Assembly (NCBI GenBank): GCA_035702425.1
Contig: DASSQQ010000042.1
Coordinates: 4,605-68,604 of the forward strand
Source of the DNA: Gemmatimonadales bacterium
Lineage (GTDB): Bacteria > Gemmatimonadota > Gemmatimonadetes > Gemmatimonadales > GWC2-71-9
DNA: 64,000 bases
Reading direction: 5' to 3'
Shown piece by piece: positions 35,492 through 45,362 of this stretch; the first letter of the stretch is position 1; each line of letters begins with the position of its first letter. The notes beneath the pieces are model-generated. The model was not told where the DNA came from, searched no databases, and worked only from the letters and a program-made list of their open reading frames with translations. The translations under genes were made by a program, and so were the position numbers.

Positions 35492-37084
35492 CTACTGCTT
35501 CTGGAAATCGGGGCCGCCCAGCGCGAGCCCCACGGCGAAGCTGCGGCGGGCCGCGGGGTCTCGCAGGTCGGCGAGCTCATCCCGGATCACCGAGCGGGTG
35601 TGGGCGGACATCGCGCCGCCGAGCACTCGAGCGTTGATCCGGTCGAGGAGCGTGTCCGGGTCGGGGGCCGGGGGCACCACCGAGTCGAGATCCACCGTGA
35701 CTCCCGGGAGCCGTCCCGCCGCGATCGCGACCGCGGCGTTCATCCGGGCGAGCAGCGCGCCGCTCGTCACCCAGTCGTCCTGGCGCTCCGGGTACCCGTC
35801 GGGCGCCACGTGCTGATAGAGCGGCTCGCCGAGGCGCGCCACCACCTGCGCCAGGCGCGGGGTGGAGTCGGGATCGGCCGAGACGGCCCGCACCGCGCTC
35901 ACCAGGAACTCGAGCGGGGTCTTGACCTTGTTGTTCAGGTTGGCGGGCGCCCAGAAGTCGGGCCCGTGAAAGATGGCGCGAAGAATCTCGCGGATGTCTC
36001 CGTCGGAGCGCTCCCAGGCGGCCACCGCGTCGTCCACGCAGCCGTCGGGCGGATCGTCCGCCACGAACCGCGCGCAGAGCTGCCGGGAGACGTGGTGCAT
36101 GGTGGCGTGCTGGCTCGCGAGCCAGGAGAGGAGCGAGCGGCCTTCGTCCTCGCCGCCTCCGGCGGGATAAGGCACGCCCATCACCACCTTTGCGCCGCGG
36201 TCGTGAGCCCAGTCCCGGTACGCGAAGTCGGCGCCCTGGCGCGGCGGGGTGATGCCCCACCCGGTGAGGACGCGCGCCACGTTGATCACGTCGTCTTGGG
36301 TGTACCCGCCGTCCACGCCCAGGGTGTGGAGCTCGAGGAGCTCGCGGGCGTAGTTCTCGTTGATCCCCTGCGGCCGGGCCTTGCCGCCGGCGCCGCGCCT
36401 CCCGCCACCCCGGGGCGGCTCGGAACCCGGCGCCACGCTCTCCCAGTTGTCGAGATAGAACATCATCGCCGGACTCCGCGCCGTGGCGATGAGCAGGTCC
36501 CGGAATTTGCCGAGGGCATGGGGACGGATCACGTGCTCCACGTAGTCGGGGAGGAGAAACCGGTCGGCGCCCTTGGTGAGCGACACGTTGAAGTGGTTGG
36601 TCCAGAAGTCGACCATCACTTCCTCGAGCTGGCGCTCGGAGAGCGCGGCCCGCACCACCGCGACCTCCTGGAGCTCGCCCGCGAGACGGCGGGCCTGCCG
36701 CACCTCGGGCGTCATCGCGGCGGGGTCCGGGTCCGCCGGGGAGGCGGCGGTCCGGGACATCGAGTCCGCGAGCCGCGCCCGCCGGGCGCGCTGGGCCGCG
36801 GTGTAGGCGTCCGCGAGATCCTGGCGCGACATCCGGAGCAGGGGGAAGGCTCGCTCCTTCGCCGCGAGCACCGGGTCCGGAATCCGGTCCGGCTGGAGCT
36901 GAGCGTCGATCCAGTTGAGGACGCCCATCCCGGCGACGCGCTCCACCTCGCCGGGCCGCGGTCCGTAGGCGAGCCGGTTCAAGGCGTGCAGGGCGGAATC
37001 CCGGGGGGTGAGGGTGGCGGGCCCCTGGGCGGGCGCGGTCCGGGCCACGAGGGCCAGGGCGCCGATCAGCGGGAAGAGCTTCAT
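35492..37084 (-). CDS. DUF1800 family protein, the conserved partner of DUF1501
   Basis: Signal peptide. Conserved DUF1800 regions (FWTNHFNVS, NENYARELLELHTLGV). Confidence 0.8.
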   Translation of the reverse strand: MKLFPLIGALALVARTAPAQGPATLTPRDSALHALNRLAYGPRPGEVERVAGMGVLNWIDAQLQPDRIPDPVLAAKERAFPLLRMSRQDLADAYTAAQRARRARLADSMSRTAASPADPDPAAMTPEVRQARRLAGELQEVAVVRAALSERQLEEVMVDFWTNHFNVSLTKGADRFLLPDYVEHVIRPHALGKFRDLLIATARSPAMMFYLDNWESVAPGSEPPRGGGRRGAGGKARPQGINENYARELLELHTLGVDGGYTQDDVINVARVLTGWGITPPRQGADFAYRDWAHDRGAKVVMGVPYPAGGGEDEGRSLLSWLASQHATMHHVSRQLCARFVADDPPDGCVDDAVAAWERSDGDIREILRAIFHGPDFWAPANLNNKVKTPLEFLVSAVRAVSADPDSTPRLAQVVARLGEPLYQHVAPDGYPERQDDWVTSGALLARMNAAVAIAAGRLPGVTVDLDSVVPPAPDPDTLLDRINARVLGGAMSAHTRSVIRDELADLRDPAARRSFAVGLALGGPDFQKQ

Positions 37085-37741: not shown

Positions 37742-38428
37742 GTGATGTCGCTCTCGGATCACCCGCTCTCGGCCCTCGCCACGCTGTTCGCGGCCGGCGT
37801 GGTCACCAGTCTCACGCCCTGCATCTACCCGATGATCCCCATCACCGCGGGGGTGCTGGCGGGGACCGCCGGCGGCGGGGCGCCGCGCCGCCGGGTGGTG
37901 ACGCTCACCCTGACTTACGTGTCCGGGCTCGCGCTCTTCTACGCCCTGCTCGGCCTCCTCGCGGGACTTTCGGGGACCCTCTTCGGCACCGTCTCCGCGA
38001 ATCCGTGGGCGCGCTTCGCGACCGGCAACCTGCTCCTGCTCTTCGGGCTCGCGATGCTCGACGTCTTTCCGGTGGCGATGCCCCAGCGGCTCCTCGCCTG
38101 GGCCGGCGGATTGGGAGGCGGCTCCTACCCGGCGGTCTTTCTCCTCGGCGCCACCTCGGGGATCGTGGCGGCGCCCTGCGGCGCGCCCGCCTTCGGCGTG
38201 GTGCTCACCTGGGTCGCCACCACCCACAGCGCGGTGTGGGGGTTCATCTATCTGTTCGTCTTCTCGCTCGGCATGATGGTGCTGCTCGTCGGCGTGGGGC
38301 TCTTTTCCGGCGCCGCCGCCCGGCTGCCGCGGCCCGGACCCTGGCTCGCCTGGGTGAAACGGGGGGCGGGGTTGATCATGCTGGCGATGGCGGAGTATTA
38401 CTTCATTCAAATGGGACAGGTGCTGTGA
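37742..38428 (+). CDS. ccdA: cytochrome c-type biogenesis protein CcdA (DsbD transmembrane-domain family)
   Basis: Two conserved Cys in TM regions (SLTPCIYPMIP … AAPCGAPAF). Six TM segments. Confidence 0.8.
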   Translation: MMSLSDHPLSALATLFAAGVVTSLTPCIYPMIPITAGVLAGTAGGGAPRRRVVTLTLTYVSGLALFYALLGLLAGLSGTLFGTVSANPWARFATGNLLLLFGLAMLDVFPVAMPQRLLAWAGGLGGGSYPAVFLLGATSGIVAAPCGAPAFGVVLTWVATTHSAVWGFIYLFVFSLGMMVLLVGVGLFSGAAARLPRPGPWLAWVKRGAGLIMLAMAEYYFIQMGQVL

Positions 38429-38943
38429 AGAGAATGCGTGGTGCGTGGTGCGGGCTTGTGCTCGGCGCGCTGCTGGCCGCGGCGCAACCTCTGAGAGCGC
38501 AGGATGAGGGGGACCTGGGTATCGCGCTCGGGGCGAAGCCGGCGCCGGTCCAGATCCAGGACCTCAACGGAAAGCCGGTGGACCTCGGCGCCTACATCGG
38601 CAAGGGCCCGGTGCTGCTCGAGTTCTGGGCCACCTGGTGTCCGATCTGCCGCGCCCTCGAGCCCCGGCTTCGCGCGGCGTACGCCAGGTACTCCTCCCAG
38701 GTCACCTTCCTGATCGTGGGCGTGGCGGTGAACGAGACTCCGGAAACGATCCGCCGTCACGTCGCCGATCATCCGCTGCCCGGCACCGTCCTCTGGGACG
38801 TGGAGGGCCGGGCGGTGCGCGCCTTCGACGCGCCCCAGACCTCCTACGTCGTGATGCTCGACAAGAATGGCAAAGTGGCATACACCGGGGCGGGGTCCGA
38901 CCAGGATATCGAAGGGGCGGTGGCGAAGATGCTGAGTCGCTGA
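38425..38943 (+). CDS. TlpA/ResA-like periplasmic thiol-disulfide oxidoreductase (thioredoxin fold)
   Basis: Signal peptide and a WCPIC active site. The GTG start overlaps the ccdA stop. Confidence 0.75.
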   Translation: MKRMRGAWCGLVLGALLAAAQPLRAQDEGDLGIALGAKPAPVQIQDLNGKPVDLGAYIGKGPVLLEFWATWCPICRALEPRLRAAYARYSSQVTFLIVGVAVNETPETIRRHVADHPLPGTVLWDVEGRAVRAFDAPQTSYVVMLDKNGKVAYTGAGSDQDIEGAVAKMLSR

Positions 38944-39011: not shown

Positions 39012-39584
39012 CTAATGCCTGGTGGTGTCCGGTAGCGTCCTCTCGATCGCGACCCGCAAACTGTCGTACGCCGTCGGATCGATTTCCCGGAACGGCGTCG
39101 CCCGCCAGGCGATCTTCCCGTCCGGTCCCACCACGAAGAGAGTGCGGTTGTCGAGCTTGTACTTGGCGAAGTAGGCGCCGTACGCCTTGCCCACCGCCGA
39201 GCCGGTATCGCTCGCCATCAGGAACGGGAAGTCCGAGTCCCGCATCCAGGACTGCTGGGCCGTATCCACGTCGGCCGAGATTCCGATCAACACCACGTTG
39301 CGTCCACCCTTGAAGACCGGCGCGTACTGATCACGGTACGCGTTCATTTGGATCGTTCACCCACGCGTTCGGGCTTTGAAGTAGAACGCGATCACCACGG
39401 TCTTGCCCCGGAAATCGGAGAGCCGGACCGGGTTCCTGAGGGTGCCGAACCGGGTGGAGCCGGGCAGCGAGAAATCGGGCGCCACCGTTCCGACCGCGAG
39501 CGGCGTCGAGTCGGAGGCCGCCTGCGCGGCGGCCGGACCCGCGGCGAGCGCGAGCGCGGTGGTGAACAACAGAGCTCGGTGCAT
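39012..39584 (-). CDS. Bcp/PrxQ-type peroxiredoxin, secreted, with an in-frame TGA at the peroxidatic-Cys position. Candidate selenoprotein, or alternatively a nonsense pseudogene
   Basis: Track ORFs 39357..39584 and 39012..39347 share one frame and are separated only by the TGA at 39357-39359. The read-through product [37 protein letters not shown] aligns residue-for-residue with E. coli Bcp [35 protein letters not shown], and the TGA sits exactly on Cys45. Confidence 0.6.
39321..39342 (-). ncRNA. SECIS-like mRNA hairpin 14 nt downstream of the in-frame UGA of the peroxiredoxin
   Basis: On the mRNA it reads CGCGUAC-CGUGAUCA-GUACGCG, a perfect 7-bp stem with a GU-containing apical loop. The apex is ~21-25 nt from the UGA, within the bacterial SECIS spacing window. 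Confidence 0.45.
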
Positions 39585-39612
39585 GGACGCTCCTTGAAGG
39601 TCCTTAATAGTA

Positions 39613-40254
39613 CTACTTCTTCACCATCTTGAAGGCGTGGTTCCAGCCCCCGGTGGTGGCGCCGTAGATCACCCACAGGATGCACAGCGGCTCCAGCAGA
39701 CGCGCCCCTTCGATTCCGCCCACGTCGATCGACCCCTGCCAGCCGAACGACTTGAGAATCCCGTTCACCGTTTCCTTGGCTGCCGCGTCGTTTCCGGCGA
39801 TGAACATGTCGGGCGGGCCGCCGGGGAACTGCGGGTGCACCATGTGGGCGTGGCCCACGATGTTGAACGCCTTCACCACCCGGGCGTCGGGGAGCCAGCG
39901 CTGGATCTGCTCGCCGCCGGAATCGGTGTGGCCCAACGCCAGGCGGGGCGGCATGCCGCGGGAGAAATCGAGCGGGTTGGTGGCGTCGATCACCACCTTG
40001 CCCGCGAAATTCGTCGGGTCGGCGAGTTTGATGGCGTTCTCGGTGCCGGTCCAGAGGGTGGCGAGCACCACCAGCTCGCCGAACTTCGCCGCGTCCGCGA
40101 AGGAACCCACCGAGGCCTTGGGCCCCGCCGTCTTCAGCCAGTCGGCGAGCTTCTTCGAGTCCCGCGTCCCCAGCTTCACTTCGTCGCCCCTGCCCGCGAA
40201 TCCCTTGGCGAGCGCCTTCGCCACGTCGCCCGATCCCAGAATCCCGATTTTCAT
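39613..40254 (-). CDS. NADPH-dependent F420 reductase-like / NAD(P)-binding oxidoreductase
   Basis: Start at [19 protein letters not shown] (Rossmann GxGxxA). ~213 aa. The longer track ORF carries a low-quality N-terminal extension. Confidence 0.65.
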
Positions 40255-40313
40255 CGTCTCACCCGCCGCTCTCCGTTGGTTGGCGAACACCGCGCTCCCC
40301 GCGCGGGTTCCCG

Positions 40314-41246
40314 TCAGTCCATCGCGACCTTTTCGATCGCCGAAAGCCGCGAAATGTCCACCGTGGGGACGCCCCGCCCATCGTGCCGGAACATGTCCAG
40401 GAATCGCGCGCCGCACACCACCTCGCCGGCGCGATAGGAGGTGCGGGCGTGCACCGTCTGGGTGAAGGTGTCGTCGGTGCCGGCGAGAAGCACCAGGAAC
40501 TCGCTGTCCGAGCTCCGGAGCCCCTCGGCGGTCGCGTCCTTGAGCGGGCTCTGGTCGTCTATGGGGTGGACGACGGTCCACGAAAGCGGGAAGAACGCCA
40601 CCCGCCGCCGCTCCAGGGTCAGGGCGTGAAATTCACGGGACCCGCCGCCCGCCCGCCGGCGGGTGAGCACCACCTGGGCGTCGAGCTCCACGATCTCGCT
40701 CTTGCGCCCGTTCACGATCCGGAACATGAACGCCTCGCCGCCGCGGTAGGGGGCGATCACCGCGACGTCGGAAAAGAGAATCGCCGCCGTGGGCCGGGAC
40801 ACCCGCGCGAAGGCGAGCCCCGCCGCGAGCGCGAACACCAGCAGGCCGACCAGGGCCTCGAGGGTCACCAGCAGATTCGCCACCAGGCTCCCCGGCGTGA
40901 CGTTGCCGTACCCGATGGTTGCCAGGGTGTGGACGCTGAAGAAGAACGCGCGGCCGAATCCCGAGACCGGGGCGCCGCTCGCGTTCACCAGGGCGCCGGG
41001 CCCCGAGGCGAGGTAGAGCAGGGCGAAGATGGCGTTCAGCGCGAGAAAGGCGCCGCAGACGAGGAGCAGGAAGTGCGGCCAGGAAATGGTGAGGAGATCG
41101 CGGTACAGCGAATGCGAGCGCCAGTAGGGGAGTCCCTCCCGGCGCACGTTGAAGCTGCCGTCCTTGTTGAGGAGCCGGCTCTTCGCTTCCCGGGCTACGA
41201 CGGACCCGAACCCCAGGTCCTCCGGCGGCTCTCGGGTTACGGCCAC
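40314..41246 (-). CDS. inward-rectifier-type prokaryotic K+ channel (KirBac family)
   Basis: Slide helix, two TM segments and the TIGYG selectivity filter (HTLATIGYGNVTP), followed by a Kir-type cytoplasmic beta-rich domain. Confidence 0.75.
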   Translation of the reverse strand: MAVTREPPEDLGFGSVVAREAKSRLLNKDGSFNVRREGLPYWRSHSLYRDLLTISWPHFLLLVCGAFLALNAIFALLYLASGPGALVNASGAPVSGFGRAFFFSVHTLATIGYGNVTPGSLVANLLVTLEALVGLLVFALAAGLAFARVSRPTAAILFSDVAVIAPYRGGEAFMFRIVNGRKSEIVELDAQVVLTRRRAGGGSREFHALTLERRRVAFFPLSWTVVHPIDDQSPLKDATAEGLRSSDSEFLVLLAGTDDTFTQTVHARTSYRAGEVVCGARFLDMFRHDGRGVPTVDISRLSAIEKVAMD

Positions 41247-43265: not shown

Positions 43266-45362
43266 ATGCGAGTTTACAAGACAGGGGAAATCCGCAACGT
43301 GGCCGTCCTCGGCCACGGCGCGAGCGGGAAGACCTCCCTGGTCGATGCCCTCGCGTTCGTGGCCGGATCGAGCAAGCGTCACGGCTCCGTGAAAGACGGC
43401 ACCGCCCTCACCGATTACACTCCCGACGAAATCGAGCGCAAGTACTCCATCAACCTGGCCCTCGCCGTGGCCGAGTGGATGGACACCAAGGTCAATCTGA
43501 TCGACACCCCGGGATACCTCGACTTCACCGGCGACGCGCTGGCGGGCGTCTACGCCGCGGACGGGGCGGTGGTGGTCCTCGCCGCGACGGCGGGCGTCGA
43601 AGTGGGCACCGAGAAGGTGTGGGATTACTGCGAGTCGCGGCAGCTGCCGCGCCTGTTTTTCGTCTCCCTGATGGACAAGGAGCACGCGGACTTCGAGCGG
43701 GTGTACGCGCAGGTGAAGGAGCGTCTCACGCCCAAGGTGATCCCGGTGGAGATCCCGGTCGGGGAAGGACCGGAGTTCCACGGGATCATCAACCTCTTCT
43801 CCAGGAAGTGCCATCTGTACAAGAAGGGCACCAAGGCGGGGGAATACGAGGAAGTCGACATTCCGGCGGAGTACCAGGAGCGCTTCAAGAAATACTCGCA
43901 GGAGCTGATCGAGAGCATCGCCGCGACCGACGATACCCTGCTCGAGCGCTACCTGGGCGGCGAGGAGATCGGCCGCGACGAGGCGATCCGGGCGATGAAG
44001 ACGGGAATGCAGCGGGGCGAGATCTTCCCGCTCTTCTGCGGCGCGGCCGAGCTGACCTACGGCACCCGCGCGCTCCTCTCCAAGATGGTGGAGCTCTTCC
44101 CCTCACCCGCCGAGCGGCCGCCGGTCGAAGCCCAGGTCTGGGGGTCGGCGGAGAAGCTCACCCTGAAGCCGGAAGACAACGGGGCGTTCGTGGCCCAGGT
44201 CTTCAAGACCATCTCCGAGCCCCACGTCGGCGACGTGACCTACTTCCGCCTGGTCTCGGGCGCGGTGAAGAACGGGCAGGAGGTCTGGAACGCGCCGCGC
44301 GAAGCGTCGGAGAAGCTCAACCATCTCTGCGTCGCCATCGGCAAGGACCGCACCGAGATCGCGGAGCTGCATTCGGGAGACCTGGGATGCGTCGCCAAGC
44401 TGCGCGACACCCACACCAACGACACGCTCTCCTCCCGGGAGCGGTCCGTGGTGCTCCCCCGGATTCCGTTCCCCGAGCCGGTGATCACGGTGGCGGTCGA
44501 GGTGAAGCAGCGGGGCGAGGAAGACAAGCTCTCCACCGGTCTCCACAAGCTCCACGAAGAGGACCCCACCTTCCATCACGAGTACCAGGCGGAGCTGGGC
44601 CAGACGCTGATCCGCGGCCTGGGCGAGCGGCATCTCGAGATCGTGGTGGGGCGCTTGGCGCGCAAGTTCGGCGTGCACGCGCTCACCACCAAGCCCAAGG
44701 TTGCCTACCGCGAAACGCTGAAGGGGAAGGCCGAGGGGCAGGGGAAGCACAAGAAGCAGACCGGCGGGCGCGGGCAGTACGGCGACTGCTGGATCCGGGT
44801 GGCGCCGCTGCCCCGCGGCTCGGGGTTCGTCTTCGAGGACCAGATCGTGGGCGGGGTGATTCCGCGCCAGTACATCCCGGCGGTGGAGCGGGGCGTGGTG
44901 GAAGCGGCCCAGCGGGGGCCGGTGGCGGGATATCCGATGGTGGACTTCAAGGTCGAGCTGTACGACGGCTCCTATCACGACGTGGACTCGAACGAAATGT
45001 CGTTCAAGATGGCGGGCATTCTCGCCTTCCGGACCGTGACGCCCAATGCGCGGCCCGCCCTGCTCGAGCCGATCATGGAGGTCGAAGTCTGGACCCCGGA
45101 CGAATACCAGGGCGCGGTGATGGGGGACCTCTCCTCCCGGCGCGGGCACATCGTCGGCACCGAGAAGGACGGCCGGCTCACCAAGGTGAAAGCGCTGGTG
45201 CCTGAAGCCGATCTCGACCGCTACGCCACCACGTTGCATTCTCTCACGCACGGCCGCGGCACCTACCGCCAGAAGTTCCACGTCTATCAGGAAGCGCCGC
45301 CGGACGTTGCGGCCAAGATCGCCGACGCGCGGAAGAAGGAGCTCACCGAGGTGAAGGACTAG
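43266..45362 (+). CDS. elongation factor G paralog (EF-G-like GTPase) with an atypical GTPase centre
   Basis: Five-domain EF-G architecture over 698 aa, with GAGGAGG as the RBS. The P-loop is GHGASGKTS instead of AHIDAGKTT. Switch II is DTPGYLDF instead of DxPGHxDF. Confidence 0.8.
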   Translation: MRVYKTGEIRNVAVLGHGASGKTSLVDALAFVAGSSKRHGSVKDGTALTDYTPDEIERKYSINLALAVAEWMDTKVNLIDTPGYLDFTGDALAGVYAADGAVVVLAATAGVEVGTEKVWDYCESRQLPRLFFVSLMDKEHADFERVYAQVKERLTPKVIPVEIPVGEGPEFHGIINLFSRKCHLYKKGTKAGEYEEVDIPAEYQERFKKYSQELIESIAATDDTLLERYLGGEEIGRDEAIRAMKTGMQRGEIFPLFCGAAELTYGTRALLSKMVELFPSPAERPPVEAQVWGSAEKLTLKPEDNGAFVAQVFKTISEPHVGDVTYFRLVSGAVKNGQEVWNAPREASEKLNHLCVAIGKDRTEIAELHSGDLGCVAKLRDTHTNDTLSSRERSVVLPRIPFPEPVITVAVEVKQRGEEDKLSTGLHKLHEEDPTFHHEYQAELGQTLIRGLGERHLEIVVGRLARKFGVHALTTKPKVAYRETLKGKAEGQGKHKKQTGGRGQYGDCWIRVAPLPRGSGFVFEDQIVGGVIPRQYIPAVERGVVEAAQRGPVAGYPMVDFKVELYDGSYHDVDSNEMSFKMAGILAFRTVTPNARPALLEPIMEVEVWTPDEYQGAVMGDLSSRRGHIVGTEKDGRLTKVKALVPEADLDRYATTLHSLTHGRGTYRQKFHVYQEAPPDVAAKIADARKKELTEVKD

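Follow-up and report, generated by a model that had tools for sequence, protein, structure and literature searches.

A predicted exported selenocysteine peroxiredoxin, encoded across a conserved in-frame UGA codon, in Gemmatimonadales

Peroxiredoxins in which selenocysteine (Sec, U) takes the place of the peroxidatic Cys are an established component of prokaryotic selenoproteomes, in whose inventories they appear as the family 'Prx' (COG1225/Bcp, PF00578, with the active-site motif TxxU) (PMC1088965, PMC5029168, and the inventories of 2022 and 2026, PMC9312934 and PMC13188914). Forty-three such sequences came from the oxic Sargasso Sea (PMC1088965), and the family stands seventh among bacterial selenoprotein families, with representatives in 78 organisms (PMC5029168). 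Here we analyze a stretch of 64,000 nucleotides from a Gemmatimonadales bacterium (contig DASSQQ010000042.1), referred to in its entirety as the window, in which a Bcp/PrxQ-like gene on the minus strand is interrupted by a single in-frame TGA at the codon for the peroxidatic residue. A preliminary description of this DNA had considered Sec peroxiredoxins rare and limited to a few anaerobes, a view that does not survive comparison with the inventories, where they rank with the most common selenoprotein families of bacteria and occur also in oxic sea water (PMC1088965, PMC5029168). On the sequence comparisons presented below, we consider it highly probable (roughly 0.9) that positions 39584 to 39012 of the minus strand constitute one functional gene, encoding an exported, Bcp/PrxQ-like 1-Sec peroxiredoxin that would be produced by recoding of the type mediated by a selenocysteine insertion sequence (SECIS) and SelB.

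The proposed gene begins at a minus-strand ATG (39584-39582) that is in frame with a TAG at 39014-39012, the sole interruption between them being the TGA at 39359-39357. Its parts are as follows.

39012..39584, minus strand: predicted complete selenoprotein gene, encoding the 190-residue precursor of a secreted 1-Sec peroxiredoxin of AhpC/TSA fold, Bcp/PrxQ-like
39590..39595, minus strand: Shine-Dalgarno site AAGGAG, lying 5 nt before the start codon (ATG, 39584)
39519..39584, minus strand: signal peptide of the Sec-translocon type, predicted from the sequence, ending in AQA and followed by A
39357..39359, minus strand: in-frame UGA, putative codon for selenocysteine (residue 76), which would be the peroxidatic residue within the TxxU motif
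39343..39356, minus strand: spacer ACGAUCCAAAUGAA of 14 nt between UGA and hairpin, constrained at synonymous sites
39321..39342, minus strand: SECIS-like hairpin with a 7-bp stem (39342-39336 with 39327-39321) and the 8-nt loop CGUGAUCA (39335-39328)

The preliminary description had recognized two minus-strand open reading frames (ORFs) in the same frame, parted only by the TGA, and re-derivation of the frame from 39584 to 39012 gave the same arrangement. Gene callers report ORFs of 75 and 111 amino acids (aa) in place of one gene in the window, an equivalent split (75-77 aa and 108-111 aa) recurs in related or identical contigs from JGI, ENA and Logan, and NCBI and JGI records consist of truncated 108-111-aa fragments labeled 'redoxin' or 'peroxiredoxin Q/BCP'. 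The active site in the window reads FYFKARTRG[TGA], and BLASTP against E. coli Bcp puts the UGA on the peroxidatic Cys of that protein, in agreement with the placement first proposed; solved archaeal Bcp proteins likewise align with the UGA on their peroxidatic Cys. The resolving Cys of Bcp, at position +5, aligns with Asn, and the entire product contains no Cys whatever, so that the original assignment to a '1-Cys type' lacking a resolving Cys also holds. A hydrophobic N-terminus equivalent to the predicted signal peptide is present in all homologs.

Affiliation with the thioredoxin-fold peroxidases is clear at the level of family. When Cys is substituted for the stop, the product of 190 residues is matched to Pfam AhpC/TSA (PF00578) at 1e-28 (100.2 bits, against a cutoff of 26) and Pfam Redoxin at 4e-18. 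The best NCBIfam match is PrxU (NF040737), at 63.3 bits against a cutoff of 270, while Bcp (PRK09437) scores 59.1 bits against a cutoff of 140 and its resolving Cys at +5 is missing; as both scores lie under the equivalog cutoffs, the protein is an equivalog of neither. Structural comparison relied on AlphaFold modeling of protein P0001, a proxy 77% identical to the window protein; the model has a mean confidence (pLDDT) of 89.6, is disordered before residue ~30, and finds its best matches in the PDB among Sulfolobus Bcp4 (3hjp, the top match), typical Prx1 proteins and the 1-Cys AhpE (4x0x). By sequence, too, the solved proteins that match best are of the Bcp and AhpE types. Of the active-site residues, Gly75 and Arg147 are invariant and Thr73 nearly so, with U76 at the peroxidatic position.

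The strongest argument for a functional UGA is its conservation. In a scan of one genome per species, TGA occupied the Sec codon in 80 of 80 species-level genomes retrieved, nearly all of them metagenome-assembled genomes of Gemmatimonadales, and a metagenome scan seeded with Cys forms recovered 53 further TGA forms together with 21 Cys forms. In total, TGA is found at this codon in 142 loci and TGC or TGT in 21 relatives, which bears out the Sec/Cys substitution pattern suggested earlier. Protein searches reflect the same dichotomy, returning on the one hand full-length relatives of 50-65% identity with Cys at the site (FFPKARTRGCTIQM), and on the other many 'proteins' of 108-111 aa and 75-83% identity that share the start MNAYRDQY, because gene callers stop at the common TGA. 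No additional stop was present in any of 138 homologs compared. Ratios of nonsynonymous to synonymous substitution (dN/dS) relative to the window were 0.21 upstream of the TGA (47 codons) and 0.36 downstream of it (52 codons); both halves of the gene are under purifying selection. TGA is at the same time an ordinary terminator in these genomes, ending 329 of 618 (53%) neighboring long ORFs. Among complete TGA-form genes themselves, the true stop is TGA in only 30 of 134 (22%), as against that 53%, although these counts are not phylogenetically independent; the real terminator of the window gene is TAG (39012-39014).

Two clades of TGA forms can be distinguished. The clade containing the window protein, with 82 distinct sequences, has lost the Pro of the PxxxTxxC motif and is hereafter called Pro-less, whereas this Pro is retained in the other TGA clade and in Cys forms. 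The second TGA clade, comprising 53 soil or rhizosphere metagenome loci (L103, L106, L113-L173), has the canonical active site AFFPKARTKGU; in one of its members (L122:2824-3588) the flanks, judged by eye, include a putative aconitase C-terminal region, a possible glycerate kinase (MOFRL-like) and a carbon-nitrogen hydrolase. TGA and Cys groups are interleaved in a rough neighbor-joining tree, which argues for several switches between Sec and Cys. In four of the metagenome Cys forms (L104, L107, L108 and L112), codons +6 to +12 read GCGTAYCGTGACCAGTAYGC, with 6 of 7 hairpin pairs and a near-identical loop, and such 6/7-paired remnants in some Cys forms look like a fossil SECIS left after reversion from Sec to Cys. 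The only cultured Gemmatimonadota sequence found, on plasmid 1 of Gemmatirosa kalamazoonensis (L174, NZ_CP007129.1:470121-470531), is a 45%-identical, signal-peptide-bearing Cys form (AFYPKDRTSGCTAEL), and this organism is therefore no ready experimental host for the Sec form. One apparently 'full-length' JGI homolog with Trp at the site (protein P0004; L011:548-1120, Ga0633609_0330342) was discarded as a translation of TGA under genetic code 4, in which the real TGA terminator had also been read through, adding 12 spurious residues.

The second line of evidence lies in the RNA immediately beyond the UGA. A perfect 7-bp hairpin 14 nt downstream, with a GU-containing loop, had been noted at the outset and was recovered at 39342-39321 as CGCGUAC-CGUGAUCA-GUACGCG, with seven perfect pairs and its onset 14 nt past the UGA. 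Loop positions 2-3 are G and U, situated 26-27 nt from the U of the UGA; in E. coli fdhF, the loop residues that contact SelB are G23 and U24, about 23-24 nt from the U of the UGA. The window hairpin has the geometry of bacterial SECIS elements, is conserved, and carries G/U in its loop. Such elements are described as a stem-loop directly downstream of the UGA with a G in the apical loop (PMC1088965).

Comparison among species is more informative than any single fold. Given an alignment of 78 distinct sequences, each covering 78 nt around the TGA, RNAalifold returned precisely the 7-bp helix and no other structure, with pairing in 546 of 546 cells (100%). For the closing pair, 42 sequences have C-G, 35 have U-A and one has G-C, one-sided intermediates being absent; the covariation score was reached by none of 500 shuffles, and pairing was destroyed when the partner strand was slid. 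The covarying bases of this pair are synonymous third positions (AAC..GCG, AAU..GCA, CAG..GCC), and since its states occur with Asn, His and Asp codons, the switch arose more than once. In the second TGA clade the closing pair is always G-C (GAG..GCC), and in L159 an Ala-to-Thr and an Ala-to-Val replacement together preserve pair 2. Cys forms, which share the conserved amino acids AYRDQYA, provide a control: within the same batch, all 7 pairs were formed in 53 of 53 further TGA forms versus 1 of 21 Cys forms, the remaining Cys forms reaching 3-6 of 7 in spite of that shared peptide. Plain-Cys orthologs, for which the preliminary description had proposed a check, therefore exist but lack the conserved hairpin, an outcome that supports the selenoprotein reading.

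Codon choice within the hairpin and in the spacer before it is similarly restricted. CGT is used in 125 of 125 TGA forms (Cys forms: CGC 12, CGT 5, CGG 2), GAT in 122 of 125 (Cys forms: GAC 10, GAT 7) and TAC in 125 of 125 (Cys forms: TAC 10, TAT 9); in the spacer, Gln is encoded by CAA in 122 of 125 TGA forms as opposed to CAG in 18 of 19 Cys forms, and Thr by ACG in 113 of 125 TGA forms. CGT, GAT and CAA, from which loop and spacer are built, are disfavored codons in these genomes. Judged by these patterns, the hairpin is under selection at the level of RNA, restricted to TGA-bearing forms. A separate, recurrent hairpin with a similar loop, CGAGCGNGTGACNTCGCTCG (L021:18982, L032:11771, L037:17094, L057:20241, L063:7719, L066:10573), was rejected as a candidate: it lies within a putative acyl-CoA dehydrogenase gene, identified by eye (AERVTSLAVELFGG), that has no in-frame TGA, and it stems from a palindromic stretch of amino acids, coding palindromes being able to yield conserved hairpins unaided.

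Several observations must be set against the proposal of a selenoprotein. The folding energy of the single window sequence is unexceptional for G+C-rich DNA (z = 0.73), so that one sequence settles nothing and the evidence for the hairpin comes from comparison among species. There, in turn, 6 of the 7 stem pairs are invariant and covariation is confined to one pair and one double change in a single sequence; the sequences are related, so that the counts are not independent events; and part of the stem follows from the amino-acid palindrome AY..QYA, Cys forms reaching 4-6 pairs. The active-site Pro, elsewhere called 'absolutely conserved' (PMC3322552), is replaced by Phe in the window and by Phe (69), Tyr (19) or Ser (1) across its clade. 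Two relatives have Leu at the Sec position, namely protein P0001 and L010 (TTA, 332-334), the latter an ENA contig (NODE_137323) of 1.6x coverage that provides the single TTA exception to conservation of the TGA. Searches for the insertion machinery were negative as well: tblastn, using the E. coli proteins SelA, SelB and SelD as queries, revealed no selA, selB or selD within the 64 kb of the window or the 1.58 Mb covered by related loci, and ARAGORN and Rfam gave no tRNA-Sec in the window or 60 loci, tRNA-Cys alone being present in the window. Finally, literature searches returned no paper linking Gemmatimonadota or Gemmatimonadetes to selenocysteine or selenoproteins.

Some related observations complete this account. 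The downstream hairpin is intact in the Leu relatives, whose Leu may reflect a G-to-T error in sequencing or else an inactivation that happened very recently. The only tblastn match to SelB (43266-45362, plus strand, 698 aa) was restricted to the GTPase domain and was set aside as an EF-G-like translational GTPase. A search of a plasmid collection with E. coli SelA gave nothing from Gemmatimonadota among the matches listed, and the supplements of PMC5029168 and PMC13326102 likewise gave nothing. No second selenoprotein was found nearby, a scan for in-frame TGA flanked by coding sequence of high G+C content at third positions yielding the peroxiredoxin only; the other candidates of that scan proved to be adjacent genes or wrong frames.

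Alternative explanations can be assessed against this body of evidence. The preliminary description had itself raised the prospect that an ordinary Bcp gene was disabled by a change from TGC to TGA, or that the TGA is an error of sequencing. One genome alone cannot separate this from a selenoprotein, gene callers do give two ORFs, and the canonical Pro has been lost as well; yet the TGA stands at one codon in 142 loci, including 80 species genomes, with no extra stop or frameshift and dN/dS of 0.2-0.36 on both sides of it, and assemblies made independently by JGI, ENA and Logan contain the identical sequence. In conjunction with the use of TGA as an ordinary terminator, these findings exclude decay to a pseudogene, an artifact of sequencing and reassignment of the code, leaving this first alternative with a negligible share of the probability. 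Slightly more weight, though still very little, attaches to readthrough that would give a full-length product free of selenium, whether by near-cognate insertion of Trp or Cys stimulated by the hairpin or by reassignment of UGA throughout the lineage. In its favor, Sec machinery was not found in the window and related loci, and the code-4 translation of one homolog by JGI has Trp at the site. Reassignment is nonetheless contradicted by TGA being the commonest true terminator in these genomes and ending 30 of these very genes, and near-cognate insertion by the catalytic role of the position, where only Cys or Sec yields a peroxidase and relatives carry Cys; the conserved hairpin 14 nt after the UGA, with G/U in its loop, has moreover the geometry of a bacterial SECIS.

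Translation might also terminate at the UGA and restart at the ATG 9 nt downstream, to produce an exported 75-aa peptide and a cytoplasmic 111-aa fragment that act separately or reassemble. Both ORFs are indeed predicted by gene callers, and the ATG is close to the stop. Such an arrangement would cut a thioredoxin fold at its catalytic residue and consign the halves to different compartments, given that only the first carries a signal peptide, and it would leave the hairpin without a role; moreover, the Met concerned is an ordinary conserved internal residue (TIQM) of uninterrupted Cys forms, is replaced by Leu (CTG) in L031, and is not preceded by a Shine-Dalgarno sequence, inspection of the region upstream of this internal ATG (39347) revealing none comparable to that of the gene itself. 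We regard restart as improbable in the extreme, falling between the two preceding alternatives. The selenoprotein reading, by contrast, has fared well, in that every sequence-level prediction tested came out as expected. We infer that residue 76 is Sec, that its insertion depends on SelB, and that the protein is exported to the periplasm and acts as a peroxidase.

The genomic setting offers a plausible redox partner. Convergent with the peroxiredoxin gene are two genes that had previously been reported as a thiol-redox neighborhood (ccdA, tlpA), both of which were confirmed by sequence and Pfam.

38434..38943, plus strand: TlpA-like exported thioredoxin with WCPIC motif, convergent with the peroxiredoxin gene (Pfam AhpC-TSA, Redoxin, Thioredoxin_8); proposed direct reductant
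37742..38428, plus strand: CcdA, electron transporter of the DsbD transmembrane family, directly upstream of tlpA (Pfam DsbD_TM, DsbD_2)

In the Pro-less clade, 61 of 68 loci have convergent tlpA and ccdA genes no more than 3 kb away, versus none of 20 loci in the TGA clade that keeps the Pro and 1 of 9 loci with Cys forms. The opposite flank of the peroxiredoxin gene varies between species. Replacement of the Pro and acquisition of tlpA-ccdA each occurred once, in the same clade, which hints that the active site adapted mechanistically, whether to Sec or to the external resolving partner. Elsewhere in the surroundings, a gene of the F420_oxidored/NADP-oxidoreductase family (39613-40290, minus strand) ends 28 nt before the peroxiredoxin start and may be co-transcribed with it in the window; this arrangement is not conserved, a divergent DUF72 gene being found instead in L006 and L007. 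Farther out are a DUF1800 and DUF1501 gene pair (window 35492-37084, minus strand, and the gene beyond; L001:5741-7333 and L001:7349-8599) and a gene for an inward-rectifier-type (IRK) potassium channel (window 40314-41246, minus strand; L001:1579-2511), the Pfam names of these genes being taken from JGI calls on an identical contig.

A mechanism can be proposed from these elements. The UGA at 39359-39357 would be recoded rather than read as a stop, the hairpin serving as a bacterial SECIS through which SelB, loaded with GTP and Sec-tRNA(Sec), is brought to the ribosome. Export of the precursor by the Sec translocon and cleavage of its signal peptide would follow. In the periplasm, Thr73 and Arg147 would activate the U76 selenolate, which could attack H2O2 or an organic hydroperoxide and be converted to selenenic acid. 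Lacking Cys, the protein has no internal resolving residue; the selenenic acid (or a selenenylsulfide) of U76 would be reduced by an external dithiol, most likely that of the adjacent TlpA-like thioredoxin, which would supply from outside the resolving function that a 1-Sec enzyme lacks. Electrons would accordingly pass from cytoplasmic thioredoxin through CcdA and TlpA to U76 and on to peroxide. On grounds of synteny and homology alone, the peroxiredoxin is probably recycled by TlpA and CcdA.

Sec peroxiredoxins of COG1225 have long been known, and neither a new recoding mechanism nor a new class of enzyme is implied. What appear to be new, or at any rate unrecorded in the papers and annotations consulted, are the Gemmatimonadota host, the breadth of occurrence (80 of 80 species retrieved), the association of an export signal with TlpA-CcdA, and the Pro-less active site; the database BSepDB (PMC13326102) may already list these genes. 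The gene is mis-annotated in JGI, ENA and NCBI records of Gemmatimonadales genomes and metagenome contigs, well over a hundred taken together, and its recognition both corrects these records and marks the order Gemmatimonadales as a user of Sec. It would also mean that soil bacteria of mainly aerobic habit keep a selenoenzyme in their cell envelope, contrary to the generalization that aerobes seldom keep selenoproteins (PMC13188914). Forms with Cys and Pro, with Sec and Pro, and with Sec and Phe or Tyr constitute a natural series from which the contribution of Sec to a peroxiredoxin might be learned. More tentatively, and at somewhat less than even odds, soil Gemmatimonadales may near-universally carry an exported, Pro-less selenoperoxidase ([F/Y]xxxTxxU) wired to a dedicated TlpA-CcdA route. 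Were this so, a large and unrecognized reservoir of selenium use would exist in oxic soils, together with the first envelope pathway of peroxide reduction built on selenocysteine. Soil Gemmatimonadales are a mostly aerobic and abundant soil lineage.

Among the closest described systems is the Prx family (COG1225) of the selenoprotein inventories, with which the window protein shares a common Pfam domain, the TxxU motif with Sec as the peroxidatic residue, widespread Cys homologs, and a G in the loop of a downstream hairpin. It departs from that family in its predicted signal peptide, in the absence of any other Cys and in its Gemmatimonadales host, and its clade has Phe, Tyr or Ser in place of the Pro in the inventories' PxxxTxxU. 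PrxU of Eubacterium acidaminophilum, a Sec-peroxiredoxin demonstrated by experiment, likewise has Sec at the peroxidatic position; unlike the window protein, it is longer, cytoplasmic, and derived from a strict anaerobe. E. coli Bcp/PrxQ is 32% identical over 146 residues, with its active site aligned column by column, whereas the window protein is predicted to be exported and to have Sec for Cys, and lacks both the +5 resolving Cys and the Pro. Mycobacterium tuberculosis AhpE resembles it in having one redox residue (E about 5e-8; fold 4x0x, 30% identity), but is cytoplasmic, based on Cys, and retains the Pro. With regard to the proposed electron route, a precedent is that of Caulobacter, where the DsbD-family protein ScsB has been shown experimentally to reduce TlpA, which in turn reduces the exported PrxQ-type peroxiredoxin PprX (PMC3322552). 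The components correspond in kind, namely a PrxQ-type peroxiredoxin with a signal peptide (predicted, in the window protein), a TlpA-type thioredoxin and a transporter of the DsbD family; in the window, where they are linked by synteny alone, a minimal CcdA stands in place of ScsB, and the peroxidase is a predicted Sec enzyme without a resolving Cys.

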